60,525 nucleotides of DNA, from assembly GCA_022705565.1 (NCBI GenBank), contig JAKJEF010000002.1:1-60525 (forward strand). The letters are read 5' to 3'. A program made the translations under genes and the position numbers. Positions 256 to 40,721 of the stretch are shown in pieces. Under the pieces are notes generated by a model. That model did not search any database, was not told the origin of the DNA, and saw only the letters and a list, made by a program, of their open reading frames with translations. The first letter of the stretch is position 1; every line of letters starts with the position of its first letter. This stretch comes from Patescibacteria group bacterium. Its GTDB lineage: Bacteria > Patescibacteriota > Minisyncoccia > UBA6257 > Colwellbacteraceae.

Positions 256-277
256 ATGTTATACAATTAGAAAAGAT

Positions 278-481: not shown

Positions 482-485
482 AAAT

Positions 486-12594: not shown

Positions 12595-12614
12595 ATTGTT
12601 TGATTATAGCCGGT

Positions 12615-13998: not shown

Positions 13999-14005
13999 TA
14001 TCGGA

Positions 14006-14467: not shown

Positions 14468-14535
14468 GTTTTTAAATTGATTTGCGACTTTTATTTTTAT
14501 CGTTGACCCGAGTTTATGTATTTATTCTACCCGAA

Positions 14536-15744: not shown

Positions 15745-15747
15745 GGC

Positions 15748-16818: not shown

Positions 16819-16864
16819 GATGTTTGTTTTATTCCTCGGAAGTTGATTTTTATTATAACACGCC

Positions 16865-18598: not shown

Positions 18599-18599
18599 T

Positions 18600-18902
18600 T
18601 TAGAAAGCGGCGAAGGGATTTTCTCTTCCGAGGCTGTTCGGTCCGATTACCGGGAGATTGATCGACCTTCCCGGATCTTCCGAAGAGAAGAATTCGTCTT
18701 GGAGCACTTCCTGCGGATTGAATTGCAAGCCGCTCAAATCGGCCACGGACTGGAGGTTGGCCGGCAGGATCGCCTCGATCAGCGGCGCCGGAGTGAAGAA
18801 AAGATAATAGGCGCCGATCGCGAGAATAGCGAGCGCCGCCGCGACGGAAATGATGATGAACGTTCTCGACCCCCTTTGATTCGGTTGAATGATGACCGCC
18901 AT
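18600..18902 (-). CDS. Small membrane-anchored pilus-locus protein (unknown)
   Basis: 100 aa with one TM helix and 1-nt gaps to both pilB and the pilO-like gene. Confidence 0.55.
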   Translation of the reverse strand: MAVIIQPNQRGSRTFIIISVAAALAILAIGAYYLFFTPAPLIEAILPANLQSVADLSGLQFNPQEVLQDEFFSSEDPGRSINLPVIGPNSLGRENPFAAF

Positions 18903-18903
18903 T

Positions 18904-19464
18904 TTATTGGTAATATGTGTTGATGATTAATTGGAGGGAATAAATATTGGCTCTTCCCGAGGCGCTGATATTCATCGAAACAATGTCCATCAGCCTCATG
19001 TTGTTCTCGACGTCGCCGATAAAAGCTTTAAGACCGTCGTAAGAGCCTTCGGCCCTGACCGTGGCTCGCAAAACCCCGTAAGCGGAAACGAGAGGGCTTC
19101 CGTTCGACTGCATCGGCGGATGCTGGAAATTGACGCTCGCCACCACCATTTGATTCGTGGACGCGAGACCGTAAATCTGCGCCAAAACATGGGGAATGTC
19201 GTCATTCAAAGGCAAGGAGCGGTCGAGATCGTCTTTGTATTGGAAGCTGTCTTCGTATTGCTGCGCCAAATTGGCGAAAGCTTCCACCTGGGCCTCCGCC
19301 ATCCGCAGAACAACGGCCGCGGCGTCCCTGTCCGCCCGAAGCTGCTTCACGCCGTTGTCGCCTTCGAATTCCGGCCTGATGAAATTGGTGAACACGAAAA
19401 CGGCCGCGACCAAAAGGGCGATGCCTCCCAAAATACTCAAAAATCTTTTAAAGGAAAAAGCCAT
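18904..19464 (-). CDS. pilO: PilO-like pilus assembly protein
   Basis: 186 aa with an N-terminal TM helix, a coiled region and the C-terminal segment GSYDGLKAFIGDVENNMRLMDIVSMNIS. Its position is after the pilN-like gene. Confidence 0.65.
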   Translation of the reverse strand: MAFSFKRFLSILGGIALLVAAVFVFTNFIRPEFEGDNGVKQLRADRDAAAVVLRMAEAQVEAFANLAQQYEDSFQYKDDLDRSLPLNDDIPHVLAQIYGLASTNQMVVASVNFQHPPMQSNGSPLVSAYGVLRATVRAEGSYDGLKAFIGDVENNMRLMDIVSMNISASGRANIYSLQLIINTYYQ

Positions 19465-19993
19465 TGTTGAAAATTATTTGCATTTGGAAAGATACTCCGG
19501 TCTGGCCGAGAGTCGCTCCGCCTATGGAAACGCTTTCCACTTCCTGAAGATTCTGGAAAACGTCGAGTTGGCTTGCTAAAGATTCGTAGGTTGAGGCTGT
19601 TCCACCGAGATTCGCCGTCAGGCTCGGAATATCGAGGTCCATCGAGCTGTAAGAAATGTCTTGTCTAGTATTCGTCTCGAGAAACGAAAATATGTTGGAA
19701 GAGAAAACATGTCTCGAAATTAATGTTTTCAGGTTTTCTATCTGGGAATAGAAATCTATGAACGTCTGCCTGTCTTGCGGCGATACTTGTTCGTTAAGCG
19801 CGTCGATCTGCGCCTGGATACTCTCCGTGTCGCTCAAGAGAAAAGGCTTATACCCGTAAGCCAATCCGAAATAGCTTACTCCCAAGAGAATGAGAATAAA
19901 CAGAGAAAATATCAAAAGTCTTGTCGGCCAACCGGCGGGCTCCCGGCCGACATTGAATCTTTGATCGATATTTGTCGGGTATTGCGGTGGCAT
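19448..19993 (-). CDS. pilN: PilN-like pilus assembly protein
   Basis: 181 aa with one TM helix, located directly downstream of pilM. Confidence 0.6.
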   Translation of the reverse strand: MPPQYPTNIDQRFNVGREPAGWPTRLLIFSLFILILLGVSYFGLAYGYKPFLLSDTESIQAQIDALNEQVSPQDRQTFIDFYSQIENLKTLISRHVFSSNIFSFLETNTRQDISYSSMDLDIPSLTANLGGTASTYESLASQLDVFQNLQEVESVSIGGATLGQTGVSFQMQIIFNNGFFL

Positions 19994-19996
19994 TTT

Positions 19997-21085
19997 TTAA
20001 AATTGCCTTAATCCGAGGCCGATCGCGACCGCGAGCGTTCCGCCCAATTCGTTCACCACGGGCTGGAGCGTCGGCGCGTAGCTCAAAGCGGAAAATGGGC
20101 TCGGCCTTTCGACTTTCATTTGCAGGAAATCCGCGGCGTATTTATCCAAGCCGGCAAGCTCGCCGCCTCCGCCGGAAAGAATCACCTTTCCGATTTGGCC
20201 GCGATAGTTCTTCTCAAAATTGTCTTTCACTCGTCTTACTTCATTAAGTATAACATCGACGTAAGGCAGCATTAAAGTGGACAACTCGTATTCTCCGCCC
20301 ATTCCGAGCAAGCCTCGGCGTTTTTTCAGTTCTTCGGCTCTTTTGACGTTGATATTCAAGCCGTTCGCGATCGCCTGGCTCATGGAACCGCCGGCGTAAT
20401 CGAGATAGGCGCTCGACAGAAGATGGCCGTCTCTCGCGACATAGAGACTGGTCGATCTTCCGCCGATATCGAGGATCAAAGAAAGCTCCGCGTCCCCTTT
20501 CGTGAAAACCCTGGCCAGGCTCATTCCTTCGATCTCGATCACCCTCAAATTAAGACCGGCGGCCTGGAAAACGCTTTTGTATTTCTCGACGATGTTGTTC
20601 GGCACCGCCGAAAGAAAGACCTGCTGCTTTTTCTGGCCTTTTTCGTCTTCGAATTCTCCGACCACCGACCATTCGGTCGCCACCGAGGCGATGGCCGCCG
20701 GCACCAAGGCTCGCGCCTGGTAAGACATGATCTGATCCATTTCGTTTTTAGGCATCATCGGCAGTTCGAGTAAAGTGGTGAAAGCGGAAAAAGGCGGCAG
20801 AGAAGCGAAAACCGCGGCCGCTCCGGGCTTCACTTCCCTGACGAGGGTCTGGAGCATGCTCGCCGCTTCTTTGTCGTCCATTTTCAAACTGCTCGTTTGG
20901 ATGGCGCTGTTCTGCCGGGAAAGATGGCTGTAAGTTTCCAGTAGTCCGTAGTTTTTGAAATGCGGCCGATCGGCGACAATGGCCAGTTCGACGAGTTTAA
21001 TCGAAGTTGTTCCGATGTCGACCCCGATGGCCGACTGGAAAGAAAGCAAAGGTTTTAGGGGTTTCAAAAAATCGAGTATCGCCAT
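19997..21085 (-). CDS. pilM: Type IV pilus assembly protein PilM (actin-like ATPase fold)
   Basis: 362 aa with VGVDIGTTSIKLVEL and a second nucleotide-binding segment ILDIGGRSTSL. Confidence 0.9.
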   Translation of the reverse strand: MAILDFLKPLKPLLSFQSAIGVDIGTTSIKLVELAIVADRPHFKNYGLLETYSHLSRQNSAIQTSSLKMDDKEAASMLQTLVREVKPGAAAVFASLPPFSAFTTLLELPMMPKNEMDQIMSYQARALVPAAIASVATEWSVVGEFEDEKGQKKQQVFLSAVPNNIVEKYKSVFQAAGLNLRVIEIEGMSLARVFTKGDAELSLILDIGGRSTSLYVARDGHLLSSAYLDYAGGSMSQAIANGLNINVKRAEELKKRRGLLGMGGEYELSTLMLPYVDVILNEVRRVKDNFEKNYRGQIGKVILSGGGGELAGLDKYAADFLQMKVERPSPFSALSYAPTLQPVVNELGGTLAVAIGLGLRQF

Positions 21086-21801: not shown

Positions 21802-23241
21802 CTAACAGGGTCCGTCTACGCAGCTCCAAGATCCGCTCCAACCGCCGTGAGACGAACATCTGCTAAGGCATGTTTCGGGGCCTCCAACGTATTGGCATTT
21901 TACTCCGGCGCCCAAACTTCCTGACGGCGTATAACCGTCGTTGCAGGTGCAGCTCCAACTTCCCGGACTGCATGATTCGCATATAAAGATCCAGTTGCAG
22001 AACTTTCCGGATGAACAATCGGAATCGCTGCAACATTGACAGCAAGAAGTGCTACACCCCAAAGACGTTTCCGAACCGGTTCCGGAACAACTGCCGCCGC
22101 TACAGACTTGAGTGACTTGCATCCTGTTGCAGAAAGAGCAAGTATACCCGGTTCCGCAATAATTGCCATCCGTGTCTCTCGAACATCCGCAAGAGCCGGA
22201 TCCTCCGGTAAAAGTTCCGTCGGCGTTGCAGGTGCTTGTCGTTGTCGTGCCGCTGGCCGATTCGTCGCAACTCGATGAATAATTGCAAGAGCAGCCTCCC
22301 GTGGTGACTGTTCCCGGATAAATGCTCGCGCTATTGTCGTTGCAGTCGATGCCGCCGGCATTCAAAGTATTTCTGCGTTTTCCGTTGGTCGGGGCCGTAT
22401 CTTGAAGATATTGGGTGGCGTTCGCGGGATAAGTGTCGTTATCAAAATCCACCATCCAGATATTGGTTTTTCTAAGCGCCCCGTCTTCTCCCAAGGCAAT
22501 CGCTCCGTTTACGGTGATTGTTTTACCGGAATTGAAGGCGAAAGTTGAATTCAAGGTCAAGGTGACGCCCGGATTGATAATCAAATTACCGTTATCCACT
22601 CCGTCTGGCGTGGAAATCGAGCAGTTGCTGCTCAAGGTGGCGTTCCCGCCCATGGGAATGCCGCAAGCGTCGCTCCAAGCTAAGGTGATTGTGTTTTCCC
22701 GGCCGGCCGCGTCTTTAGCAATGAAAACCGTGTGATAAGTATTGTCGTGGGTGTCTTTGACGATCCATGATCCTTCGTACAGAGACGCCTTGCGCCGTTT
22801 CGGCATTGATTGGAATCGCCTTAAGAATTCTTTGAATATATTTTTCTCTCCGATTTCTTCTGGGGATAACGACTCCGATTCTGTTTGCTTTACGAATTCC
22901 AAAGGTAGGACCACGACATCGTTGTCGGTCTCGATATGGGCTTCGACCGAGACGATTTCCGCGTCATCATCGATGATTACCGAAAGTTTTTGCGTGTTTC
23001 CGATATGGACGTCGACTGGATCAATAATCGCTTCGATGAGTTTGGGCCAGATTTCTTCGGCCTGGCTGATATGATAAATCTGTCTGCCTTCCGGAAGAGT
23101 GAATCTTCTTCCGTTTTCGCCGACGCTCAACGGTTCCGGGCTTCTCTTCATAATGGCGCCGATGGCGAAAACGGCGAGAACGATCAACAAAACGACAGCG
23201 GCGATTTTTCCGGCGTCGATCTTCTTGAAATCAAATTTCAT
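21802..23241 (-). CDS. Membrane-anchored Cys-rich surface protein ending in the shared six-Cys module
   Basis: 479 aa with an N-terminal TM helix. I count 28 Cys in the last ~190 residues. The C-terminus CTCNDGYTPSGSLGAGVKCQYVGGPETCLSRCSSHGGWSGSWSCV aligns with the C-termini of 31037..32725 and 33909..36167. Confidence 0.7.
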   Translation of the reverse strand: MKFDFKKIDAGKIAAVVLLIVLAVFAIGAIMKRSPEPLSVGENGRRFTLPEGRQIYHISQAEEIWPKLIEAIIDPVDVHIGNTQKLSVIIDDDAEIVSVEAHIETDNDVVVLPLEFVKQTESESLSPEEIGEKNIFKEFLRRFQSMPKRRKASLYEGSWIVKDTHDNTYHTVFIAKDAAGRENTITLAWSDACGIPMGGNATLSSNCSISTPDGVDNGNLIINPGVTLTLNSTFAFNSGKTITVNGAIALGEDGALRKTNIWMVDFDNDTYPANATQYLQDTAPTNGKRRNTLNAGGIDCNDNSASIYPGTVTTGGCSCNYSSSCDESASGTTTTSTCNADGTFTGGSGSCGCSRDTDGNYCGTGYTCSFCNRMQVTQVCSGGSCSGTGSETSLGCSTSCCQCCSDSDCSSGKFCNWIFICESCSPGSWSCTCNDGYTPSGSLGAGVKCQYVGGPETCLSRCSSHGGWSGSWSCVDGPC

Positions 23242-23250
23242 ATTTTTGTT

Positions 23251-25329
23251 TTATTTGACCTTTAGACCGGTTCCCGGTTCCGCGTCTTTCGGGACGTTCG
23301 GCCAATTCAGATAGTCGAATCTCGGCGCGGTCAATCGGTAGGAAACTTCGAAACCCCCGTCTGTTTCATCGGTATTACCGACGATCAGAATACGATTGTT
23401 TGCGCTATCCTTTTTATAAGAAACACTACCCTCGAATCCGGGCGTGAGGAGAATAATCAAGTTTTTCCATTGTTCTCCGAAATTAGTCGTGCTGCGGAAA
23501 AGCCAGAAATCAGATCCCTTGTTTGCGAACGAGAAATTGATTTCTCCGGACAATTTGCCGTCTTCGGCCAAGTTTAATTTCAAAACGCCGGCCGTTTCTT
23601 CTTTCACTCCGGTCATACCCGGAGTATAAGTCGAATATTGTTCGCCGTTGATGTTGAAAAGCGGGTCAACCGTACCCACGGTGAGCTTTCCTGATCCGCC
23701 GCCGATAACAACCGTGTCTCCGGCTGCCGTGCCGAATCGAGCCGTGGTCGCGCCTCCGCTTACGACATCGAGTTTATATCCCGGCGCGGTAGTTCCGATG
23801 CCGACTTTACTCGCATCGTCGATGCTGATCGCCGCCGCCGAAAGTGATCCGTCGGTTTGAATAACGCCGATGTCTCCGAACGAATTATCGCCGGTCCGAC
23901 GACCGCCTTTGATGTAAATACCTCTGTCGTTCGAATGGTTGATTCTCACTATCGCCGCCGAATTATCGGTGTCGTTCCCTCCTTGAAAACGCGCCACTTC
24001 GACTTCTCCGGCGATCGTGGCAGCCAGCACGTGCAGTTTGGTTCCCACAAAACCTGTTTCGTTTTTCTCTTGCGGCGCCAATATACCGATGCCGAAATTG
24101 CCCGGCCCCATGAAAGATACGTTGTTTCTGGTTGCTGTATTTTCAACTGTTGCCGGCGCCGTTACCGTAATGACGTTTACCAAGTTATCCGGATTGGTAG
24201 CGAATATCCTGACTTTGGCGTAAATAGTGTTTGAAGCGGCGGCATTAATTTGATAAATCGGAATCCGGACTTTGGATGTCTCATAAATTTCGGCGTCTCC
24301 GATGGCGTAATTACTGGCTAGACCTCCCGAAGCATCCACCACTTCGGTCGTATAATTGCTCAAAGACGTACCGCCGACGGCATGATGGAAACTAAACCTT
24401 CTGGTAAGAGCTCCGAAAGCCGTGTTGTGGTTCCAACCTCCTATTAACTCCACTTCTATTTGTCCGTTCCAGGCGATGTCTCCAAAATTGATATAGCCGA
24501 CCTGGTTTGCCGCTAGCGCGAAGTTGCCGATGGTACCCGTCCACAAAATCATCCTGCCTTGTTTGATGTTGCCGTTTATTTCCAATTTTTGACTCGGCGT
24601 GGAAACGCCGATACCGACGTTGCCCGCGAAATAAGCCGTACCGTTGACGTTCAAATTCTGCCATCTCAAGGCGCTTGTGCCTATGCTCCGGGTATTGGTC
24701 GTGTCCGGCAGCAAATCCGAATCAAAAGTGGCGGCCGAAACCCGGCCGATGGCCGAAGTCAAAGTGCGGGAAATCGCGTATTTCGGATTGGTGGAGTTGT
24801 AGGTCATGCTCATATCGATATTGACCACCGAATGACCAACCAATTCCCTACCCTCTGCTTCCGAATAACGGATATTGTCGATTTTGGTGAAAGTCAAAGA
24901 ATTCGTCACCACACTGCCGGTCGTCAAGCTGGTTTTCGTGGTCGAGCACTCGTCGGCCGGCGTTCCCGGACCCTGGGCTATTTTGATCACGCCCGATTCC
25001 AAAGTGATGCAGGTAGGATCGGACGCCGGAGCGGACATTCTCAATTTCAAAGTCGATCCGCTGGCGGATTCGATGTTACTCGATTGCTGGATCAAAGCCT
25101 GAATCGTTTCGAGCGTCGCGTCGAGCTGGCTCGAAACTTCCCTCGAGGCGGATTCGCGGCCGGTGATATCCGTCACGGTCAAAAGAATATTGGTGAGAAA
25201 AACCGAGGCGATCGAAAAAACTCCCAAATAAACCAAAAGCTCCATCAAGGTAAATCCCCGTATTTTCGCTTTTAAAATCCGGCCCGCCGCATTTTTAAAA
25301 GACAAATCTCCTTTTTTTATATTGAGCAT
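23251..25329 (-). CDS. Large pilin-headed protein with tail-fibre-like repeats
   Basis: 692 aa. A 25-aa leader precedes G-FTLMELLVYLGVFSIASVFL. Internal motifs are GNVGIGVSTPSQKLEING and KVGIGTTAPGYKLDVVSG. Confidence 0.7.
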   Translation of the reverse strand: MLNIKKGDLSFKNAAGRILKAKIRGFTLMELLVYLGVFSIASVFLTNILLTVTDITGRESASREVSSQLDATLETIQALIQQSSNIESASGSTLKLRMSAPASDPTCITLESGVIKIAQGPGTPADECSTTKTSLTTGSVVTNSLTFTKIDNIRYSEAEGRELVGHSVVNIDMSMTYNSTNPKYAISRTLTSAIGRVSAATFDSDLLPDTTNTRSIGTSALRWQNLNVNGTAYFAGNVGIGVSTPSQKLEINGNIKQGRMILWTGTIGNFALAANQVGYINFGDIAWNGQIEVELIGGWNHNTAFGALTRRFSFHHAVGGTSLSNYTTEVVDASGGLASNYAIGDAEIYETSKVRIPIYQINAAASNTIYAKVRIFATNPDNLVNVITVTAPATVENTATRNNVSFMGPGNFGIGILAPQEKNETGFVGTKLHVLAATIAGEVEVARFQGGNDTDNSAAIVRINHSNDRGIYIKGGRRTGDNSFGDIGVIQTDGSLSAAAISIDDASKVGIGTTAPGYKLDVVSGGATTARFGTAAGDTVVIGGGSGKLTVGTVDPLFNINGEQYSTYTPGMTGVKEETAGVLKLNLAEDGKLSGEINFSFANKGSDFWLFRSTTNFGEQWKNLIILLTPGFEGSVSYKKDSANNRILIVGNTDETDGGFEVSYRLTAPRFDYLNWPNVPKDAEPGTGLKVK

Positions 25330-27236: not shown

Positions 27237-28472
27237 TTATCTCACAATCTTATATATCTTCCCCGCATTCCCCGCGGGGCCGGCTTCCCCGGACGTAAGA
27301 AGATACAATTCTCCATTTTTGTCTTCACCAAATCCCAAGACAAAAGAATCGATCTCTTTTGTCTGGGTTATGCTCCAGCCGTCGCTTTCTCCTTGAGCCG
27401 GCGGTTCGGCCACGAATATTTTTCCGGCGGCACTGGTGAAGCTTCCGCTCCAATCTCCGAAAACATACTTTCCGTACAAGGCGGGAATCTTTTCTCCCCT
27501 ATAGACAAAGCCGCCTATAAGAGATATGCCCTCCGTATGGCTGTATTCCAAAATGGGAGCCACCAATTCTTCTCCGTTGTAGCCGGTATTCCGGCAATCG
27601 GCCGGCGATTCATCGGGACTTTCGTGGCTGAAGCAGTGATTTCCTTCTTTGATGTTCCAGCCGTAATTTTTTCCTTTCTCGACAATATCGACTTCTTCCC
27701 ACAGATTCTGCCCCACATCGCCTACGAACAATTCTCCGGTCTTTCTGTCGAATGACATCCTGAACGGATTCCTGAATCCATAGGCGTAAATCGCGTTATG
27801 GAAAGGATTGTCCGAAGGAACTCCTCCGTTCGCGTCGATTCGCAGAATTTTCCCTAAAGGACTTTTAAGGTCTTGACCATTACCCATGGCCGGATGTCCC
27901 AAACCGAAATCGTCCGCGTTCCCGCCATCACCGACGCCGACATAGAGATAGCCGTCCGGCCCGAAGATTATTTCTCCGCCGTTGTGGTTAAATTGCGGCT
28001 GATCGATCTCCATAATGATTTTTTCCGAGTTCAAATCCGCCTTGTCCGGATTGCTTTCGGAAACCGTGAATTCCGAGATCCTGCTCGTATGATCGAATCC
28101 CGCGGGAGCGCCTCCCCGGAGCGGAGCGCTGTAATAAACATAAAATTTCCTGTTGGTTTCGAAATTTGGGCTGAAAGCCATTCCCAAAAGTCCGCGTTCG
28201 TCATAATTCTCCTGCAGCTCCACCAGATTTGCCTTCAAATCCAAAAACGGTTCATCCAAAACCTTTTTGTTTTTGATTATCTTGATCACGCCGATTCTGT
28301 CGGCGACGAACAGCCTTCCCGTGTCATCCGGCGACTCAACCAGTTTTACGGGAGAAACGAAATTATCGGCGACCAATTGTAAATTAAGCATTCCCGTTTT
28401 TTTTGAAGAATTGATAATAAAAAATAAAACCACTAACGCGACGGCGACAATTAGAATGTTTTTGTATTTCAT
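27237..28472 (-). CDS. Soluble glucose/sorbosone dehydrogenase-family beta-propeller (PQQ-dependent sugar dehydrogenase family)
   Basis: 411 aa with an N-terminal signal/anchor, HNGGEIIFGPDGYLYVGVGDGG and FRNPFRMSFD. Confidence 0.8.
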   Translation of the reverse strand: MKYKNILIVAVALVVLFFIINSSKKTGMLNLQLVADNFVSPVKLVESPDDTGRLFVADRIGVIKIIKNKKVLDEPFLDLKANLVELQENYDERGLLGMAFSPNFETNRKFYVYYSAPLRGGAPAGFDHTSRISEFTVSESNPDKADLNSEKIIMEIDQPQFNHNGGEIIFGPDGYLYVGVGDGGNADDFGLGHPAMGNGQDLKSPLGKILRIDANGGVPSDNPFHNAIYAYGFRNPFRMSFDRKTGELFVGDVGQNLWEEVDIVEKGKNYGWNIKEGNHCFSHESPDESPADCRNTGYNGEELVAPILEYSHTEGISLIGGFVYRGEKIPALYGKYVFGDWSGSFTSAAGKIFVAEPPAQGESDGWSITQTKEIDSFVLGFGEDKNGELYLLTSGEAGPAGNAGKIYKIVR

Positions 28473-28477
28473 GTTTT

Positions 28478-28846
28478 TTATTGAACAACGATTTTACCCG
28501 TCATAAATGGATGCGGCGCGCAGTGATAGGGATATTCTCCCGCCCGATCGAAAGTATGCGTATAGCTCTCGTTTTGGCCAAGTAGATCCGCCGCCAACTC
28601 ATTCCCGCTGTCGGAAACGACGTTATGTCTCACCGAATCCCTGTTTGTCCAGATGACCGTCTCGCCGACGGAAATCGTCAGTTCTTTGGGAGAATACGCG
28701 AAATTTTCTATAAAAATAGCGTTTTCCCCTTGCGGTTGCTGTATTTCTTCCGAGCCCGACCTTTGCGTTGTTAGCAAATAATAAGAAGCGATGCCGATAA
28801 CGGCGACGGCCACTATCGTAATCGCGATCCGTATGGATTTTTTCAT
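28478..28846 (-). CDS. Cupredoxin (plastocyanin/amicyanin-like blue copper protein)
   Basis: 122 aa with an N-terminal anchor. Type-1 Cu ligand pattern: H in VRHNVV, then C-x2-H-x2-M in YHCAPHPFM. Confidence 0.8.
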   Translation of the reverse strand: MKKSIRIAITIVAVAVIGIASYYLLTTQRSGSEEIQQPQGENAIFIENFAYSPKELTISVGETVIWTNRDSVRHNVVSDSGNELAADLLGQNESYTHTFDRAGEYPYHCAPHPFMTGKIVVQ

Positions 28847-29597: not shown

Positions 29598-29999
29598 TTA
29601 AGGTTTTAATGTTAGCCCAAATAAAATCCCTAGCACTAACATTTCCACCAAACCCGTAACAAGCGAATAACCTAAAGTGCTTACCGGGACATTAAACGTC
29701 ATCCAAGAAGAAACGACCGACATTACAACACGAAAGAACCAAGCAATACCGGCGAAACTTAAACCTTTTAATAAACCTGTTTCCCCGGGCAAACTCTTGT
29801 AAAGCAACAAAAACAAACCGGCCATTATAAAACCATAAATGAGGTCTATTATTATTCCCGCGGGTGCGCTGATTGAAGTTTTGGCAATTGGTTTATAAAC
29901 CTCAAAAAGTTTCTTGGCGTAAGAATTGGCATTAATTACGCCGTCCATAGTTCCGAACAAAAATCCGCCAACTATGCTGGCAATAATGTATCTAATCAT
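29598..29999 (-). CDS. Hypothetical 4-TM membrane protein
   Basis: 133 aa in an AT-rich stretch. Its start overlaps the stop of the HTH remnant (ATGA). Confidence 0.55.
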   Translation of the reverse strand: MIRYIIASIVGGFLFGTMDGVINANSYAKKLFEVYKPIAKTSISAPAGIIIDLIYGFIMAGLFLLLYKSLPGETGLLKGLSFAGIAWFFRVVMSVVSSWMTFNVPVSTLGYSLVTGLVEMLVLGILFGLTLKP

Positions 30000-30115
30000 A
30001 ATTTTGAATTGGTTGTATGTATTATTTTAACAATTCTTCTATTGGTGGGTGTTGTATAGTTTATATCCGCTTTCTTGGCTAAATCGTCTTGTGTCAGGCC
30101 AAGTTTTGCCCGCAT
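29996..30115 (-). pseudogene. Truncated or degenerate XRE-type HTH ORF (39 codons)
   Basis: MRAKLGLTQDDLAKKADINYTT.. matches the first half of XRE HTH proteins (compare 278..481) and then loses the pattern. Its start lies 20 nt from the tRNA-Ser 3' end. Confidence 0.35.
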
Positions 30116-30134
30116 TTTCTTATCTTTTTCCAAC

Positions 30135-30224
30135 TGGCGGAGGGTACAGGATTTGAACCTGTGATCCCGTTTCCGGGAAACCGCATTTCGAGTGCGGCGC
30201 ACTAGACCACTATGCGAACCCTCC
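30135..30224 (-). tRNA. tRNA-Ser (anticodon CGA), CCA encoded
   Basis: Hand-folded cloverleaf: acceptor GGAGGGT/ACCCTCC, anticodon loop CTCGAAA, long variable arm (CCCG-GAAA-CGGG), T-loop TTCAAAT, 3' GCCA. Confidence 0.9.
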
Positions 30225-30231
30225 ATCAAAG

Positions 30232-30304
30232 TGGACCCGATCGGACTCGAACCGATGACCTCCACATTGCAAATGTGGCGCTCTACCAACTAAGCTACAG
30301 GCCC
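30232..30304 (-). tRNA. tRNA-Ala (anticodon TGC)
   Basis: Acceptor GGGCCTG/CGGGTCC with the G3:U70 pair, anticodon loop TTTGCAA, T-loop TTCGAGT. Confidence 0.9.
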
Positions 30305-30361
30305 GAAGGATCAGGATCATAATAGCGAGTTTTTACGACTCGGACAATAAGTAAATTCTTG

Positions 30362-30434
30362 TGGACCTAAGGGGATTCGAACCCCTCGCCTCTTCTATGC
30401 CATAGAAGCGCTCTACCAAATGAGCTATAGGCCC
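30362..30434 (-). tRNA. tRNA-Ala (anticodon GGC)
   Basis: Acceptor GGGCCTA/TAGGTCC with the G3:U70 pair, anticodon loop ATGGCAT, T-loop TTCGAAT. Confidence 0.9.
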
Positions 30435-30528
30435 ATCAAAACAATGTCTATTGTAAAGGATTTTCCGGGAAAAACAAATATAAACCGCTTGTAAACAAGG
30501 TTTCTAGAATATAAGCTGAAATGGAACA

Positions 30529-30615
30529 GGAAGCGTGCCAGAGTGGTCGAATGGGCCTGTCTTGAAAACAGGTATGCCCGAAAGGGCATCAGAGGTTCGA
30601 ATCCTCTCGCTTCCG
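30529..30615 (+). tRNA. tRNA-Ser (anticodon TGA)
   Basis: Acceptor GGAAGCG/CGCTTCC, anticodon loop CTTGAAA, long variable arm (TGCCC-GAAA-GGGCA), T-loop TTCGAAT. Confidence 0.9.
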
Positions 30616-30653
30616 CCCTATGTTTTTATTCATAAACGAATAGAATATAAGTA

Positions 30654-30992: not shown

Positions 30993-31000
30993 ACCAAAAA

Positions 31001-31023
31001 AGACTCTCCCCGCGGGAGAGTCT
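31001..31023. terminator. Bidirectional intrinsic terminator between convergent genes
   Basis: 9-bp stem agactctcc/ggagagtct flanked by an A-run (30995..31000) and a T-run (31023..31026). Confidence 0.75.
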
Positions 31024-31036
31024 TTTGATTCTCGAC

Positions 31037-32725
31037 TCAATAGTTCACGCAAGTGAAATCATTGGTTCCCCCTCTCCATCCGCCGTAGGAAGAACATCTA
31101 CTGACGCAAGTTTCTACATTGCCTACATATTGGCACCGCACTCCGGAAGCAAGAGATCCGCTAATTATGCTGCCGTTGTTGCAAACGCAAGTAAACGAAC
31201 CATTGATCGGAGTCTGGGTCGATGCCTGTATATTGACATATGAAGTGTCCGATTTGCCGATACTATTGTACGCGGAATTAGTCATATAGTCGGCATTCTG
31301 ATAATTAGACATCGCACCGATCTCGCTCGGTCTAAAACATCGCAGGCTTACTGCATACGTTCCGGCCGGGACACCGAGCGTGGAAAAACTAACGCTGGTA
31401 TTTCCGCTTATCGCAAGATTAGGTTTGGTCTCGTTCGTGCCCTGGAACCAGACGCGGCATCCCTGGAAATGAGACGAAACTTGCCAGCTTACCGAGAAAG
31501 TTTGGCCTTGTGTTATGGACGAAGGATAAACACTCGCAATTCTCACGGATTCGCTACTATCCGAATAATAAGAATAGGAAGAGCTCGAGGGAATCAAAAC
31601 CGAAACTTCGTTGGAGAAACCGCTTTCGCCGCTGGCGTTCACCGCCTTCACGCGATAATAGTAGGTTACGCCTCTTGCCACACTCGAATCGGTATAGTTG
31701 GTGAATTGGGTGGTGGCGAGTAAAGAAAGATTACCCGAAGAAGTTCCCCGATAAACCTTATAATTCTGGATCAAGCTTCCGCCATTATAGGGAGAATCCC
31801 AATTTAAAAGAGCGTAGCCGGAGCTGTTTTGGGCGGTCAAATTGGTGATTTGGCCGGGAGCGGAACTCGAAGTATTGGAACTGCTCGAGTCATAAGAATT
31901 TTGGTAGGTCGGTTCGTACGGATCGAGAACAGTCACATAATTATCGCTTTCATCGTAGATGTTGGGATTATTAGCGTCGGAGACTCTTATTCTTATTCGA
32001 CTTACTCCGGCGTAAAACGGATTATTGGGATCAACATACCATGACCGATAACCCAATCCGGCGTCGGTCTCACCATAACCGGATAGTGGTTCACAAGTAT
32101 ACGGCGGATTTAAACGTGGCGTATCGGCGCATTCGGTCACTATTACTTTATTGATTCCATTCGATCTCCAGGTAATGTTGTAAGTCTGGCCGGTGGTAAA
32201 AGTCTCTCCCCCATTCGGATAGATAACAGTAATATAAGGAATCGATGTCGACGCGGACGAAATTCCGCATCCGTAGAGCGCGTTTAATTTGGCTCTGGTC
32301 GAGCTACCCACGAAACCGGTTCCCCGCGTAAGTCCTACCGGAGAAAGGACATCCGCTCTGTATTTTTCCTGGAGCCTCGTGACAGCCGAAGCGGTTGACT
32401 CGTTGAACACGTTATCGGGATAGCTCAAAAGCCCTTCTTTCTGTAAGGCGGTTTCGAGCGCCAGAACATCCTGGCTAATAGTCCCGACTCCGAAATTGGT
32501 GCTGAAGTTGTAACACCAACCGGTCGCGGTTGCCGTCGTCTGCGTTGGTGTTTGGCGCAAAGACGACAATTGCTGTTGGAGTTGGCTGATCTGTTGCTGC
32601 AACGACTGCATTAATGTTTGTATTTCCGCAGCTGTCATGGCCGCTTCAGTTTTTGGCGGGTTAAAACCAAAAAGACCGAAAACAGCCAAGAAGGTTGCTG
32701 CTAAGAATATCTTTTTATGATTCAT
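31037..32725 (-). CDS. Secreted modular surface protein: PG-binding-like domain, FN3 domain, shared six-Cys C-terminal module
   Basis: 562 aa with a signal peptide and a Q-rich coiled segment. It has a peptidoglycan-binding-like repeat ([20 protein letters not shown]), one FN3 ([24 protein letters not shown]) and the C-terminus [31 protein letters not shown]. Confidence 0.75.
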
Positions 32726-32906
32726 GTTTTTTATATCGACTTTAAATTAAGATGATCCGACCCTTTGTTTATATGATAACATAACTTCCCCAGAGGCTCC
32801 CGAAAAAAAGACGTGGAACGCCGGTTTGAAAAAATGTGAAAGTCAGCGGCGGCAATTGTGCTATAATCAAATAAAGCGTCGATACATTAAAAATAAATAA
32901 ATCATC

Positions 32907-33047
32907 ATGTGGTTAATCATAGGCATTGTCTCGCTCGCGGCCTGGATCGCCGGCTTTTTTGTATTTAAGGTCGCCGGGCTCTTTATCCACCTGCTTCTCA
33001 TCGTGGCGGTGGTTTCTTTCCTTGTCCGCATAATCAAAGGAAAATAA
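32907..33047 (+). CDS. lmo0937-family small membrane protein (46 aa), below the ORF-track cutoff
   Basis: My translation is MWLIIGIVSLAAWIAGFFVFKVAGLFIHLLLIVAVVSFLVRIIKGK, which has the typical pattern of this small-protein family. TG-n-TATAAT lies at 32859..32867. Confidence 0.65.
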   Translation: MWLIIGIVSLAAWIAGFFVFKVAGLFIHLLLIVAVVSFLVRIIKGK

Positions 33048-33056
33048 ATAATTATC

Positions 33057-33392
33057 ATGGCAAAAATAACCAAAGCAAAAATCAAAAGCAGCGCCCGCAA
33101 AATTCGTAACGCGACCGAAGAACAATTCAACGAGATGGAGAAAAATTACGAGAAGCTCATGGGAAGCGTCAACAACATGAGCGCTCCAGGGCTTTTGTTC
33201 GTTTCTTTCATCGGAATAGCCATCATCCTCTTGCTCGACAGCGCCCTATTCGATCTTATCGGATTACTGGTATTGATTTATCCGTTCTACCTTTTCGTGC
33301 AGAAAACCGGACATCATGACGGTTATTGCGAAGGATATTACGATCACATGACCAAGGATAAAGACACCGGCAGGAGCGACAAAAAAGACTAA
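33057..33392 (+). CDS. Hypothetical 2-TM protein
   Basis: 111 aa with a basic N-terminus, two hydrophobic helices and a His/Asp-rich tail. Confidence 0.5.
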   Translation: MAKITKAKIKSSARKIRNATEEQFNEMEKNYEKLMGSVNNMSAPGLLFVSFIGIAIILLLDSALFDLIGLLVLIYPFYLFVQKTGHHDGYCEGYYDHMTKDKDTGRSDKKD

Positions 33393-33453
33393 ACTCGACA
33401 TCGTTCTGACTTGGGGATTTTTTCCTTTACCTGTTCTGTATTACAATTACACC

Positions 33454-33855
33454 ATGAAAAAAGGTTTCAAAAACAATATCGAGAAATTAACCCTTGAGAA
33501 CGACAATTTCCGAAAGGTCCTCTACACCGCCGGACACTGCCAGCTCGTTTTGATGAGCCTCAAGCCCAAAGAAGACATCGGCGTCGAGATCCATCCGGAC
33601 AACGATCAATTCTTCAGGTTCGAAGCCGGTCACGGCAAAGCGATCATCGACGGTAACGAATACGACCTCGAGGACGGCGACGCGGTCATTGTTCCGGCCG
33701 GAGCCGAACATAACATCATGAACGTTTCCGAAACCGAGGGATTGAAACTATACACCATCTATTCCCCGGCCCATCACAAAGACGGAATCGTGCGGCTGAC
33801 CAAAGAAGAAGCGATGGCGAACGAAGCGGATTTCGACGGCGTGACAACGGAATAA
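33454..33855 (+). CDS. Cupin domain protein
   Basis: 133 aa with cupin motifs (GVEIHPDNDQFFRFEAGHG ... GDAVIVPAGAEHNI). Confidence 0.75.
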   Translation: MKKGFKNNIEKLTLENDNFRKVLYTAGHCQLVLMSLKPKEDIGVEIHPDNDQFFRFEAGHGKAIIDGNEYDLEDGDAVIVPAGAEHNIMNVSETEGLKLYTIYSPAHHKDGIVRLTKEEAMANEADFDGVTTE

Positions 33856-33868
33856 CACCGGATTCAAA

Positions 33869-33894
33869 ATCTCCCCCGCTTAGACGGGGGAGAT
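33869..33894. terminator. Intrinsic terminator after the cupin gene (convergent junction)
   Basis: 10-bp stem atctcccccg/cgggggagat with a 6-nt loop, followed by a T-run (7 T after the stem, 33895..33901). Confidence 0.8.
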
Positions 33895-33908
33895 TTTTTT
33901 GTTTCGGC

Positions 33909-36167
33909 TTAATAGTTCACACAAGTGAACCCGCTGGTTCCACCTTTCCATCCGCCATAAGGAAGGCATTTACTGACGCAAGTTTCTACACCGCCAACAT
34001 TGGAACACAATACGCCGGAAGATAAAGCTCCACCCAATACGGTGCCGTCGTTGCAAACGCAACTATAGGAACCGTTGATCGAGCTCGTCGAGGTCTGACC
34101 ATAAGCTTTAATAACAACAATATTTTTACCGTCACGCTTACCGATGCTGTTATACGCTGAATTGGTCATATAGTCGTCTTCTTTATAATTAGACATCGAA
34201 TCGATTTCGTAAGGCCTGAAGCACCTGACGCCGACTTCGTACGTTCCGGCCGGAATGCCGGATGTGGAAAAACTGGCGCTGCCGTTTGTCGGAAGACTGT
34301 CTTTGGTGATATTCGATCCCTGGAACCAGACGCGGCATCCTTGGAAATGGGACGAAGACTGCCAGCTGACCGAGAAAGTCTGACCTTCGGTTACGGACGA
34401 AGGAAGACTCGTGATTCTCACGTATTCGCTCGAATACGAAGGCACATAGACGTAATCGTCATCATCATCGTCGTCATAATAATAAGTCTGGGAAGGAATC
34501 TTCACTGAAGCCTGATTCGACAAGATGCCTTCTCCGTAAGAGTTCACGGCCGAAACTTTATAGTAATAATTTTTACCACTTGAAACACTCGAATCGGTAT
34601 AGTTGGTGAATTGGGTGGTCGCAAGCAAGGAAAGATTACCCGAAGAAGTGCCTCTGTAAATCTTGTAATTCTGGATCGAGCTTCCGCCGTTATATGGAGT
34701 GCTCCAGGACAAAAGAGCGTAACCAGAGCTGTTTTGGGCGGTCAAATTGGTGATCTGGCCAGGAGCGGTCTTTGGATTGGAAGGCGGATAATAGACGTAG
34801 GTCGAGTAAGGCGTTGCCGAGACCCTGTTCGATAGACTTCCTTCACCCACGGAGTTTACGGCCGAGACGCGGTAATAATAAGTCGTGCCGTTAGAAACCG
34901 AAGCGTCGATAAAACTCGTCGATCCGGCAGTCGTATAAAAGCTGTCGCCGTAATAATCGGTCGAACGATAGATTTTGTAATAGGAAACCGAGGTCGAGCC
35001 GGAAGACGGCGTTGACCACGAGAGATAAACCTGGTTGTTGCCGGGATTCGCCGAAAGTCCGGTAACCTGTCCCGGAATCTGGTTGTAGTTGTAGTAATAG
35101 TAAGACGAAGCGACCGGGGTGGCGCCGACCTCGGCCGACATCGGGCCTTCACCCGTGGAGTTAACGGCGGAGACTCTAAAGTAATACGTCTGGCCGTTAC
35201 TCAAACCGTAGTTCACGAAAGAATTCGTGGACACGGTCGAGACATAGGCCGAATTGCCGTAATAATCCCTCCGATAAATCTTGTATCCGGTGATGGCGGA
35301 TCCGCTTGTCGCGGACCAAGAAAGAGAAACCTGACCGTCTCCGGGAATGGCCGTCAAATTGGAAATCTGTCCGGGCAATCCGGCATTGTAGACATAATTA
35401 TAGGCCGTCGGATTGGCCGAGACCCTGTTCGATAGACTTCCTTCACCCACGGAGTTCACGGCCGAGACACGATAATAATAGGCGGTGTTATTCGACAAAT
35501 TGGTGTCGGTAAAAGCCGAAGAATTCGTGGAAGTGAGAAAAGTTTCTCCGCCGGCCCAAGTGCCGCGGTAAATCTTGTAGAGACTGATCGGTCGGCCGCC
35601 ATTATAAGGAGCGGACCAAGCCAAAGAAACCAGATTGTTTCCGGAAACCGCCACCAAGCTGTTGATGGCCGAGGGAACCGAAACCGCGGGCGCGACAACA
35701 GCGCCACCATTGTCGTTCTTCGAAATCGGCTGGGATCCCGAAATGCTCGGCAAAGCATTCACCGCGTCGGACATCGGGCCTTCGCCCATGATGTTCACGG
35801 CCGCCACCTTGTAGTAATAAGTCGTGCCGTTTTTGACTGCGCTGTCGGTGAAAGACTCGCGCGAAATCGCGGTCAAGAAATCCAGATTATTCGAAGACTC
35901 TCCGCGATAAATCCGATAAGCGGTGATTTTGCTGCCTCCATCGATCGGCGCGGCCCAGGCGAGCGAAACTTGTTCGTCTCCGGAAACGGCCACCAGATTG
36001 GAGATCTTCTGGGGAACGGTGACCACTCCTCCTTCGAGACTCGAAAGAATGGTGGCGGAAAACCTTCTGAAAATCAGATTGGCTCTGTTCGCCAAGTAAA
36101 AAATACCGACCAGAATCAAGGCGATAATAATCGCGATCAAGACCTTTCTATTGATGGTAATAGTCAT
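33909..36167 (-). CDS. Membrane-anchored surface protein with five tandem FN3 domains and the shared six-Cys C-terminal module
   Basis: 752 aa with an N-terminal TM helix and five repeats of the type P..I..L.A..G...V.L.W..P...G..I..Y.IYR......YYY.V.AVN..GEG. It also has a poly-Asp run (YYYDDDDDDDYVY) and the C-terminus YSCVCNDG..CVSKCLPYGGWKGGTSGFTCVNY. Confidence 0.8.
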   Translation of the reverse strand: MTITINRKVLIAIIIALILVGIFYLANRANLIFRRFSATILSSLEGGVVTVPQKISNLVAVSGDEQVSLAWAAPIDGGSKITAYRIYRGESSNNLDFLTAISRESFTDSAVKNGTTYYYKVAAVNIMGEGPMSDAVNALPSISGSQPISKNDNGGAVVAPAVSVPSAINSLVAVSGNNLVSLAWSAPYNGGRPISLYKIYRGTWAGGETFLTSTNSSAFTDTNLSNNTAYYYRVSAVNSVGEGSLSNRVSANPTAYNYVYNAGLPGQISNLTAIPGDGQVSLSWSATSGSAITGYKIYRRDYYGNSAYVSTVSTNSFVNYGLSNGQTYYFRVSAVNSTGEGPMSAEVGATPVASSYYYYNYNQIPGQVTGLSANPGNNQVYLSWSTPSSGSTSVSYYKIYRSTDYYGDSFYTTAGSTSFIDASVSNGTTYYYRVSAVNSVGEGSLSNRVSATPYSTYVYYPPSNPKTAPGQITNLTAQNSSGYALLSWSTPYNGGSSIQNYKIYRGTSSGNLSLLATTQFTNYTDSSVSSGKNYYYKVSAVNSYGEGILSNQASVKIPSQTYYYDDDDDDDYVYVPSYSSEYVRITSLPSSVTEGQTFSVSWQSSSHFQGCRVWFQGSNITKDSLPTNGSASFSTSGIPAGTYEVGVRCFRPYEIDSMSNYKEDDYMTNSAYNSIGKRDGKNIVVIKAYGQTSTSSINGSYSCVCNDGTVLGGALSSGVLCSNVGGVETCVSKCLPYGGWKGGTSGFTCVNY

Positions 36168-38691: not shown

Positions 38692-39507
38692 TTAGATTGC
38701 AAAAATCCGCAGGGCGTTTTTCGTGGTTTCCCTCGCCACTTCTTCCAAGCTCAAGCTTTTGACTTTGGCGATATGTTCCGCCACGTGAACGACAAAACTC
38801 GGTTCGTTTCTTTGCCCGCGGAAAGGAACCGGCGCCACGTACGGCGCGTCGGTTTCGAGAAGCAGACGATCGAGCGGGATGCGCCGCAGAACCTCATCGT
38901 AATTTCCCGCGAAAGTGATGGCTCCGCCGAAAGAAAAAGAAAAACCCATCTTAAGGAGTGTTTCGGCGTCTTGAAGGCTTCCCGTGAAAAAATGACTGAT
39001 TCCCGGCCGATCCGGAAGAAGCCGCGAGCGTTCGCTCCGAAGAATCTCGATTAGATCGGGATAAGCGTCACGGCAATGAACCATCAAAGGCTTACTTGTT
39101 TCTTCCGCCAATTTGATTTGAGCCAAAAAAATCTCTTTCTGTTTGTCTTTGGCGGCGTTCTTTAAGTGAAAATAATCCAAACCGCACTCACCTATGGCTA
39201 CCACTTTCGGGTTTTGCGCGAGCCGACAGAAAAAATCATAGTCGAATTCTTCGCTTTTTGAAACCGATTCTTCCAGATCTTCTTTTTCCGCGGCTTCGGC
39301 GTGGATCGGATGGAAACCGACAGTGGCGTAAACTCCTTTTTCGTGATCTTCGGCGATCATCACCGCTTTTTCCGAAGTCTCTTTCTGTGAGCCGACGTTA
39401 TTCAACCACACGCCTTTATCCAGAGCGCGCCGGATTACTTCTTCGTGATCGTCTTTAAAGGCAACGAACTGGACATGGGTGTGAGAATCGAAAAAAAGAG
39501 GCTTCAT
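38692..39507 (-). CDS. tatD: TatD family metal-dependent hydrolase
   Basis: MKPLFFDSHTHV.. is the typical TatD start. This ATG overlaps the upstream stop (ATGA). The ORF track extends to 39552. Confidence 0.85.
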   Translation of the reverse strand: MKPLFFDSHTHVQFVAFKDDHEEVIRRALDKGVWLNNVGSQKETSEKAVMIAEDHEKGVYATVGFHPIHAEAAEKEDLEESVSKSEEFDYDFFCRLAQNPKVVAIGECGLDYFHLKNAAKDKQKEIFLAQIKLAEETSKPLMVHCRDAYPDLIEILRSERSRLLPDRPGISHFFTGSLQDAETLLKMGFSFSFGGAITFAGNYDEVLRRIPLDRLLLETDAPYVAPVPFRGQRNEPSFVVHVAEHIAKVKSLSLEEVARETTKNALRIFAI

Positions 39508-40721
39508 CTCGAAAAAATGTTTAGTCTGTCGAGAGGGGCATGACCGCTCCATTTTTGGATGGCTGTTCCGTCGATCGCGGTGACGGTCGACATCATCGGC
39601 TGATTATACGCGTTATACGGAGTCGGAGAGTTATATAAAATACAAGTGCCGCAACAACTGGTATTGAAGTACGCCAGACCGTTGGTGCAAGTGTTCCAGT
39701 TATAACTGCTTAGGGAGTTAAGTGCCGCCGCCGGGTCTGATCCCGAGTAAGTGAATCCGGTCTGGGGACCATTAATCCCCGTAAGGGAAAAAGTGGCTGA
39801 CTTATTAAATGTAGCCTTGCCTTCGGCGGTGGTGATGGCCATTTTGGACCAGCTCGTATTCGGTATCATGTACCAATACTTCATCGCTAACCTATACGGG
39901 GAATCAAGTGAAGGAACGCCGATGGTTTGATCGAGTTGGGAGGTAAACGGCAGCGCCCATCTCGTATCGACGGGCTGCCCCTTAATCGTGGTTTGCACAA
40001 GGGTCCAGCCTCCTCCGTCGGTAGTCATATCGCAATAAACCGGAAAAGCTGGTTCGACGCCGCCACTGTCAACATCTATGAGATATAATCCGCTGGCTCC
40101 GTTCGGAAAAAGAGAATGGATGTTGTTGCAGCTTGTTCCCAGAACCGCCAAAGGGGTTAAGTCTGATCGGGAACCCGCTTCGTAGGCCAGGACGTTGTCG
40201 CCGCCGTCTTTCGAGGCTCTTTCAAGACCGATCCTCCTCGATTCGATATTCGAAGAAATTTCCCATTGCGTTCCGTCGGTGACGTACGAATAATAAAGCG
40301 TGTCTCTCGCCGAATTTACGGGATCAATCGGAAGCTGCAGTATTGTCGAACCTCCGGGTATATTGTCGAGATTGACCGGCAACCAGCCGGTTCCGTTGGT
40401 TTTCTTGAGATTCGCCGCGGTGGCGCAGTTATAAGTATATCCGGGAATTTCCGGCAGAAACGAAATATGGGTGGGACAGCTTGCCGTCGTATCTGGCAAC
40501 GATATATAGATTTTGTTCGCTTGTCCCATAGAGCCCCGGACTTTCAAGTCATAAAGACTAACGGCCGTGTTAAGTCTTTCGATATCGGCGATTCTTTGGG
40601 CGTCGCGCCCCTGACTCAAGAATTCGACCGGGTTCAAATACATGACAACCGTCGCCGAAAGCACGGCGATGATGGAAACGGTAATGAGAACTTCGATCAG
40701 CGTAAAGCTTTTTTTGCTCAT
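39504..40721 (-). CDS. Pilin-headed protein with a fibrinogen-related (FReD-like) C-terminal domain
   Basis: 405 aa. The signal reads MSKKS-FTLIEVLITVSIIAVL, and the internal segment is GLYLIDVDSGGVEPAFPVYCDMTTDGGGWTLVQT. Confidence 0.7.
   Translation of the reverse strand: MSKKSFTLIEVLITVSIIAVLSATVVMYLNPVEFLSQGRDAQRIADIERLNTAVSLYDLKVRGSMGQANKIYISLPDTTASCPTHISFLPEIPGYTYNCATAANLKKTNGTGWLPVNLDNIPGGSTILQLPIDPVNSARDTLYYSYVTDGTQWEISSNIESRRIGLERASKDGGDNVLAYEAGSRSDLTPLAVLGTSCNNIHSLFPNGASGLYLIDVDSGGVEPAFPVYCDMTTDGGGWTLVQTTIKGQPVDTRWALPFTSQLDQTIGVPSLDSPYRLAMKYWYMIPNTSWSKMAITTAEGKATFNKSATFSLTGINGPQTGFTYSGSDPAAALNSLSSYNWNTCTNGLAYFNTSCCGTCILYNSPTPYNAYNQPMMSTVTAIDGTAIQKWSGHAPLDRLNIFSR

Follow-up and report, generated by a model that had tools for sequence, protein, structure and literature searches.

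A six-cysteine C-terminal module on three differently anchored surface proteins of a Parcubacteria lineage

INTRODUCTION

To our knowledge, host recognition and attachment in the Patescibacteria are largely unknown outside a few cultivated Saccharibacteria. A 60,525-nucleotide stretch of one Patescibacteria genome (assembly GCA_022705565.1, contig JAKJEF010000002.1, positions 1 to 60,525; hereafter the window) encodes three surface proteins, P_A, P_B, and P_C, that end in the same six-cysteine module of ~52 amino acids, and the question raised by this locus is what one small module would do at the C terminus of proteins whose anchors and upstream domains differ. A first-pass annotation of the sequence had noted the similarity and suggested three roles: a disulfide-knotted binding head, a surface attachment or sorting module, or a tag for export or processing. 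Here, we conclude with high confidence that the module is real, is under constraint, and forms an extracellular domain at the protein terminus. As judged from sequence, it may serve as a ligand-binding (adhesive) head common to three N-terminally fixed surface proteins and placed at their distal end, a reading that we favor at about even confidence; that the module binds an external ligand at all is held with moderate confidence at best.

RESULTS

The module and its carriers

A six-frame motif scan of the window located three copies of the module, all on the minus strand (coordinates include the stop codon):

Copy A, 31037-31195, minus strand: last 52 codons plus stop of P_A, FTCVCNNGS...FTCVNY; six cysteines; hidden Markov model (HMM) score 102 bits.
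Copy B, 33909-34067, minus strand: last 52 codons plus stop of P_B, YSCVCNDGT...FTCVNY; six cysteines.
Copy C, 21802-21957, minus strand: last 51 codons plus stop of P_C, WSCTCNDGY...SCVDGPC; six conserved cysteines and one extra terminal cysteine.

The three open reading frames (ORFs) and their C-terminal sequences matched exactly those quoted in the first-pass annotation, and a search of the window's six-frame ORFs with a local HMM, trained on five module sequences, returned the same three copies and no others. Alignment of P_A with P_C was confined to the last 53 residues (58% identity, BLASTP E 2e-16), and the similarity of the three copies is far above chance. Across five module sequences, 21 columns are invariant, all six cysteines among them, with the spacing C-x-C-x15-C-x8-C-x3-C-x11/14-C. 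The pattern originally written for the module closed with G-G-W-x-G-x(3,5)-C-V, which fits P_C and fails for P_A and P_B, where the last loop has six residues; x(3,6) is needed.

The carriers are organized as follows:

P_A, 31037-32725, minus strand: 562 amino acids; Sec-type signal peptide, coiled-coil-like Q-rich stretch, PG_binding_1, immunoglobulin (Ig)-like region, fn3, Ig-like domain, module.
P_B, 33909-36167, minus strand: 752 amino acids; N-terminal membrane anchor, five fn3 domains (fn3 E 1e-42, five stretches), Ig-like domain, module.
P_C, 21802-23241, minus strand: 479 amino acids; N-terminal membrane anchor, ~330-amino-acid region conserved across Parcubacteria, cysteine-rich region (30 cysteines in total), module.
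Shared cassette in P_A, residues 288-562, nucleotides 31037-31864, minus strand.
Shared cassette in P_B, residues 467-752, nucleotides 33909-34769, minus strand.

Pfam searches recovered the upstream architectures that had been proposed, namely, PG_binding_1 plus fn3 in P_A, five fn3 domains in P_B, and a cysteine-rich region without an above-threshold domain in P_C, where a weak MopE-like motif (DCNDxxxxIYPG) lies upstream of the module. The view of the three proteins as otherwise different holds for P_C, which has only the module in common with the others, and falls for P_A and P_B, whose last 289 residues are 66% identical and form a cassette of one fn3 domain, a ~110-amino-acid Ig-like domain with two cysteines, and the module.

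The N termini of all three proteins are hydrophobic (Kyte-Doolittle 17-residue maximum 2.0 to 3.3), that of P_A being a Sec-type signal peptide and those of P_B and P_C uncleaved-looking anchors, while the last 60 amino acids contain no hydrophobic segment (maximum 0.39 to 1.2). Because all three are anchored N-terminally, the module would be the end farthest from the anchor, where we infer that it is displayed outside the cell with its cysteines oxidized. P_B has only eight cysteines in 752 amino acids: the module accounts for six, and the two of the Ig-like domain are the only others within ~45 residues upstream of the module. The six module cysteines, if oxidized, would therefore pair among themselves, which would make the module an autonomous three-disulfide unit. 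The original description of a discrete six-cysteine unit at the extreme C terminus of secreted or anchored proteins is borne out.

This position at the very end of otherwise differing secreted proteins is also the hallmark of a sorting, export, or processing signal, which a dedicated enzyme (sortase-, exosortase-, rhombosortase-, or type IX secretion system [T9SS]-like) would remove or use for covalent attachment. Sortase-type signals consist of a short signature motif, a hydrophobic transmembrane segment, and a basic tail. The last 60 amino acids of the three proteins, however, have neither a hydrophobic helix nor a basic tail; the isolated modules gave no NCBIfam or Pfam sorting-domain match at E ≤ 10, and the full proteins matched no sorting model. 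Genomes with the module have only one to three potential cargo proteins, one relative having a single copy, and the proteins are already anchored at the N terminus. No sorting or processing enzyme was seen next to the module genes or among the scanned ORFs of the 60-kb window and its flanks, and terminators directly follow P_A and P_B. We consider such a role very improbable; among the three roles first suggested, the binding head fits best, as N-terminal anchoring would put the module at the far end.

Distribution of the module

A profile built from the three copies was run with HMMER over 1.84 billion representative proteins, and pattern scans confirmed by tblastn covered 185,579 species-representative genomes, JGI and ENA metagenome contigs, and viral contigs. 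Two true relatives were found among the representatives, a search that missed P_C itself and that modules can escape when their 50% cluster representative has another tail. The first, P0003, is a 729-amino-acid P_B orthologue in GCA_023380305.1 that keeps the module, and the second, P0001, is a chimeric, frameshifted P_A/P_B-like fragment. The DNA-pattern scans, which detect close variants only, identified two loci in the species-representative genomes, the P_B orthologue in the metagenome-assembled genome (MAG) FK_Sedi_A_Bin.300 (GCA_023380305.1) and a P_C orthologue in MAG JPAS_metabat.84. The JGI and ENA contigs held an identical copy of P_A, copies of P_C, and a chimeric P_B fragment, as well as a more diverged P_C orthologue (L010) that keeps the module at 86% identity.

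No relatives of the module were found in the viral contigs, and matches in PHROGs all came from fn3 and Ig repeats. One metagenomic locus (L012) was discarded as a false positive, a high-GC 995-amino-acid protein that matches "SRCDSYGGW" only and has no cysteine pattern. A word-indexed search of 5.8 billion proteins, using the module alignment and a 180-column alignment of the Ig-like domain plus module, was uninformative: it came back empty even for the query proteins and P0003, all present in public collections according to the exhaustive representative search and the contig look-ups; queries that are short or rich in Cys, Ser, or Gly apparently slip past the word index.

The module-bearing genomes are few and near-identical, were recovered from activated sludge and sediment, and encode one to three carriers each, GCA_023380305.1 having a single copy. 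PilM is 95% identical between the window and the JPAS MAG, and LeuRS, MetRS, and PilM are 82 to 86% identical between the window and GCA_023380305.1. Within the reach of these searches, the module is restricted to a genus-level clade of Parcubacteria and occurs outside the window in close relatives only.

The chimeric fragment was observed in other assemblies (P0001 and L011 9-999, activated-sludge metagenome, coverage ~3) as a P_A-like start with a P_B continuation and a frameshift inside the module (...CLPWRMERW...). This hybrid probably reflects an error of assembly or sequencing in the cassette that P_A and P_B share and could, less probably, be a real recombinant pseudogene.

Conservation and selection

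Ratios of nonsynonymous to synonymous substitution (dN/dS) were obtained as Nei-Gojobori estimates. Between P_C and its orthologue at L005, the module has no nonsynonymous change at a proportion of synonymous differences (pS) of 0.42, and it is perfectly conserved where the remainder of the protein is 90% identical. Compared with the more diverged orthologue at L010, P_C has a dN/dS of 0.11 in the module versus 0.27 upstream. For P_B and its orthologue, the module gave a dN/dS of 0.22 at a dS of ~1.5, and for the paralogues P_A and P_B the values were dS 0.52 and dN/dS 0.48 in the module and dS 1.07 and dN/dS 0.18 in the cassette upstream of it. Fifteen non-cysteine columns of the module (G, N, L, V, E, S, and GGW) are invariant between paralogues saturated at synonymous sites, and several aromatic positions are conserved.

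Recent gene conversion or duplication was rejected as the source of the similarity: divergence at synonymous sites is heavy, and P_A and P_B have no identical DNA run longer than 35 nucleotides; selection, rather, maintains the module. The copies are old (dS from 0.5 to saturation), and the module is under purifying selection (dN/dS 0 to 0.23 between orthologues). The first-pass annotation had named confinement to the three paralogues through recent duplication as a ground for its own refutation; the restriction to paralogues and genus-level orthologues stands, and the recent duplication does not (dS at least 0.5, purifying selection).

A three-residue insertion in the last loop is common to P_A and P_B and absent from P_C and from the P_B orthologue, and GCA_023380305.1 has no P_A at the syntenic position. 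Together, these observations suggest that P_A was derived from the C-terminal cassette of P_B after the two lineages split. Surface proteins are 56 to 61% identical between the window and GCA_023380305.1, compared with the 82 to 86% of housekeeping proteins given above. Variable tips and fast divergence of surface proteins are as expected of interaction surfaces.

The P_C family and its pilin-like partner

A full-length search with P_C listed 26 homologues, in Parcubacteria, with source names that include Candidatus Colwellbacteria and Liptonbacteria. All but one of those listed (25 of 26) keep the N-terminal ~330 amino acids and have unrelated cysteine-rich tails in place of the module, and the module HMM gave a single match across them, to the 90%-identical orthologue P0008. 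The conserved body is marked by the motifs IDPxDVHVGDTQ, KDTHxxxYHTxF, and LAWSDACGIP and by a DCND MopE-like motif, whereas the tails (P0010-P0033) differ completely between lineages and range from 60 to more than 400 amino acids. The tail of the syntenic orthologue P0010 was considered as a degenerate module: a W-x-C-x-C-x-G-Y-T start is common to both, but the cysteine spacing differs and the HMM gives no match, and the tail was taken as nonhomologous or unrecognizable.

The abundance of unrelated cysteine-rich tails at one position raises the possibility that "some knotted end" may suffice, that is, that the module would be a passive, disulfide-locked plug that stabilizes the free C terminus and protects it from proteases without a specific ligand. 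Extracellular proteins of candidate phyla radiation (CPR) bacteria are generally rich in cysteine (PMC4736985), in keeping with such a cap. The 15 invariant non-cysteine columns and the conserved aromatics nevertheless represent more constraint than a generic cap needs, and we regard this explanation as unlikely.

The P_C-type gene and its upstream partner form a pair that is conserved in relatives (L001 15102-18616; L005 2617-6162; L013 4499-7191; L014 1519-5298). In the window, the partner is:

Pilin-like protein, 23251-25329, minus strand: 692 amino acids; N_methyl motif GFTLMELLV; immediately upstream of P_C; C terminus ends EVSYRLTAPRFD.

Partners in this lineage are pilin-like proteins of 670 to 700 amino acids with the prepilin motif GFTLMELLV, and those of more distant Parcubacteria lack the prepilin motif and carry a signal or anchor sequence of ordinary type. 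The partner C terminus is conserved, ending ...EVSYRLTAPRFD..W.N, and Pfam contained no domain for either the P_C family or the partner family. The picture is of a conserved two-gene surface cassette in which the P_C member has an interchangeable cysteine-rich tip; in this lineage, the tip is the module that also caps P_A and P_B.

Such a pairing could mean that the module serves docking or oligomerization and plugs three differently anchored proteins into a common partner, as dockerins do with cohesins or as in the tip complexes of pili; the partner could be the giant pilin or its pilus, for example, or the three proteins could bind one another. The use of the same module on different scaffolds, as with dockerins, the conserved pairing of P_C with the 692-amino-acid pilin-like gene, and the perfect conservation of the module between P_C orthologues 90% identical elsewhere all speak for it. 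Yet the P_C/pilin pair persists without the module in GCA_023380305.1 and in distant relatives, so the pairing is independent of the module; moreover, all three proteins are self-anchored at the N terminus, no candidate receptor domain was identified, and there was no Pfam dockerin match. We judge docking to be unlikely, to much the same degree as the passive cap.

Genomic neighborhood

The features surrounding the module genes include the following:

Intrinsic-terminator-like hairpin, 30998-31026, minus strand: 13-bp stem plus T run, 11 nucleotides past the P_A stop codon.
Palindromic hairpin, 33866-33897, no strand assigned: 13-bp stem bordered by runs of A and T; located where the P_B and cupin genes converge; resembles a terminator in either direction.
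Complete type IV pilus gene cluster next to P_C, 11552-21085, minus strand: minor pilins, PilD, major pilin, PilC, PilT, PilB, PilO, PilM.

P_A and P_B are each monocistronic, their stop codons being followed at once by terminators, and the genes downstream of P_A, P_B, and P_C (DUF488, cupin, and ComFC-like) are all on the opposite strand. This arrangement bears on a possible effector role, in which the module, as a defensin- or knottin-like peptide or the C-terminal domain of a polymorphic toxin, would be delivered to a neighboring cell. In polymorphic toxins, the gene with the variable C-terminal toxin is succeeded on its own strand by a cognate immunity gene. The conserved body and hypervariable C termini of the P_C family do resemble a polymorphic-toxin layout, and the module has the CxC and CxxxC elements of cysteine-stabilized alpha-beta peptides and a weak match to the venom polypeptide 6px8 (E 0.47). 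That match is nonsignificant, however, and the order of CxC and CxxxC is reversed; none of the three genes is followed by an immunity-like gene, what comes next lying on the opposite strand and terminators standing after P_A and P_B; and Pfam and NCBIfam revealed no cleavage motif or toxin domain. An effector role is scarcely credible on these grounds.

Two further pilin-like proteins with the N_methyl motif and unusual C-terminal domains are encoded on the minus strand at 39504-40721 and 54328-55827, one with a fibrinogen-C/COLFI-like region and the other with an FGE-sulfatase (formylglycine-generating-enzyme-like) domain. Just downstream of P_A, at 30135-30617, lie four tRNA genes (Ser-CGA, Ala-TGC, Ala-GGC, and, on the opposite strand, Ser-TGA); a 97-amino-acid ORF at 29996-30289 was rejected as a gene, being a spurious translation across the tRNAs. 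A glucose/sorbosone dehydrogenase (GSDH) gene (27237-28846, minus strand) stands beside the gene of a small cupredoxin (plastocyanin/azurin-like); this redox pair is unusual in a reduced Patescibacteria genome and is absent from the syntenic region of GCA_023380305.1. The first 3 kb of the window (1-3000) have 34% G+C compared to 44 to 52% elsewhere and contain, at 486-3077, an 863-amino-acid Eco57I/MmeI-type restriction-modification methylase fusion; this segment looks like a horizontally acquired island.

DISCUSSION

The adhesive-head reading can be laid out as follows. A ~50-residue extracellular mini-domain with three disulfides would have arisen and been shuffled within one genus-level Parcubacteria lineage. 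It would form the tip of P_A, a secreted protein held on the wall by its peptidoglycan-binding domain; of P_B, which is membrane-anchored with five fn3 domains as a stalk; and of P_C, membrane-anchored and encoded beside a giant pilin in a type IV pilus locus. Stalks of different length and anchorage would thus present one head, and the target, on a partner cell or on a substrate, would be the same for all three proteins. Historically, the module may be ancestral in P_B; P_A may have arisen when a duplicate of the C-terminal cassette of P_B was joined to a wall-binding N terminus, and P_C has the module at the tip of its tail, a region hypervariable in its family. A binding head is suggested by the position of the module relative to the anchors, by its conserved non-cysteine residues, including aromatics and GGW, by carriers that evolve faster than housekeeping proteins, by the pilus context, and by the precedent of cysteine-rich attachment proteins in CPR bacteria (PMC4736985).

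Several observations weigh against this reading. The syntenic P_C orthologue P0010 (GCA_023380305.1, 56% identical) has a different cysteine-rich end and no module, so the module is dispensable for P_C core function. Between the paralogues P_A and P_B, dN/dS is higher in the module than in the upstream cassette (0.48 versus 0.18), and their modules may bind nonidentical ligands. No disulfide-forming enzyme was seen among the scanned ORFs of the window and its flanks. AlphaFold2, given the module with a four-sequence alignment, produced an all-beta model of low confidence (predicted local distance difference test [pLDDT] 54), and Foldseek comparison of the low-confidence model with the PDB returned nothing below E 3.6.

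A bolder version of the adhesive head would make the module the host-recognition determinant of the lineage, binding a host-envelope structure and setting host range, with tip swaps on the P_C/pilin cassette as a general means by which CPR episymbionts change hosts. We hold this to be improbable; if true, one disulfide-locked head would be displayed by a protein bound to the wall, by a long stalk of fn3 domains, and by a protein associated with the pilus. A small, autonomous domain kept by selection at the tip of three differently anchored proteins would offer a tractable handle on host attachment, through expression, structure determination, and use as a ligand probe. The P_C family, with its conserved body, conserved pilin-like partner, and interchangeable cysteine-rich tips, may have more general value. 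Set against this, the module is confined to few near-identical genomes, adds little beyond one more orphan domain, and opens no long-standing question.

Comparison with known systems

The first-pass annotation did not recognize the module as a named domain, and this assessment still stands: neither the full proteins nor the isolated modules had an above-threshold match in Pfam or NCBIfam, and a sequence search of the PDB gave only the 37-amino-acid venom polypeptide 6px8, at a nonsignificant E value. A recent preprint on the CPR-specific Pam pilus system deals with different proteins and classes and does not cover the module.

The closest resemblance is to epidermal growth factor (EGF)-like domains, which are likewise small, extracellular, and disulfide-rich with six cysteines. 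Sub-threshold Pfam EGF matches fell on the first ~20 residues of the module: cEGF (PF12662; E 0.0026, 18.0 versus a cut-off of 26.6 bits), EGF_3 (PF12947; E 0.036, 14.7 versus 28.5 bits), and EGF_CA (PF07645; E 0.038, 14.7 versus 27 bits). No EGF family match was listed for the full proteins at E ≤ 1. The nonfamily matches among the 1.84 billion representatives were exclusively eukaryotic EGF-repeat proteins, over profile positions ~2 to 30. Using hhalign, 17 columns aligned, module positions 3 to 19 with positions 21 to 37 of the calcium-binding EGF (cbEGF) domain, corresponding to the GSYxCxCxxGY hairpin; the accompanying probability of 94% is inflated because the small cbEGF alignment was built from sequences picked by the module profile. 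This beta-hairpin is the C-terminal half of calcium-binding EGF domains, and it is mirrored by the first ~17 residues of the module, GS[FYW][ST]C[VTA]CN[ND]G[Y..]. In EGF domains, the cysteines are ordered C1..C2..C3..C4-x-C5..C6, such that CxC comprises the fourth and fifth. In the module, by contrast, CxC comprises the first and second, P_A and P_B do not have three upstream cysteines to complete an EGF domain, and the second half, VGxxE[TA]CxSxCxxxGGWxG...C, is without an EGF counterpart. We conclude that the module resembles the EGF hairpin in motif only and is not an EGF domain.

Cysteine-stabilized alpha-beta peptides follow the signature C..CxxxC..C..CxC, in which the helix CxxxC is paired to the strand CxC. 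Both elements are present in the module, but in reversed order, with CxC first; an AlphaFold2 model of P_C from its single sequence placed ETCLSRCSSH in a helix with low confidence (pLDDT 35), while the equally tentative model from four sequences is all-beta.

As a short C-terminal module reused on proteins with different upstream domains, it also recalls dockerins. It differs from them in being stabilized by cysteines, with neither the duplicated calcium-binding loop-helix motif nor a Pfam match, in being borne by self-anchored proteins, and in the absence of an identified cohesin-like partner. The Pfam models for dockerin, hevein/CBM18, and CBM1 were not listed for the isolated modules at E ≤ 10. 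With the LPXTG, PEP-CTERM, GlyGly-CTERM, and T9SS C-terminal sorting domains, the module has in common its extreme C-terminal position on secreted proteins, whereas it has no signature motif, transmembrane helix, or basic tail, the proteins ending in CVNY or CVDGPC.

CPR bacteria have large, cysteine-rich extracellular proteins that vary between strains and have been proposed as attachment factors; these are multirepeat proteins with a mean of 1,655 amino acids (PMC4736985). The carriers of the module are, like these proteins and those with Myxococcus-type repeats (MopE-like, PF11617), extracellular, cysteine-rich, and strain-variable, and they belong to the same superphylum; P_C even has the weak MopE-like motif. 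The module differs in being a single terminal unit with a pattern of its own and no detectable similarity to the repeats. As a sequence family it is undescribed, but the object is a familiar one: a small cysteine-rich extracellular module shuffled among CPR surface proteins.

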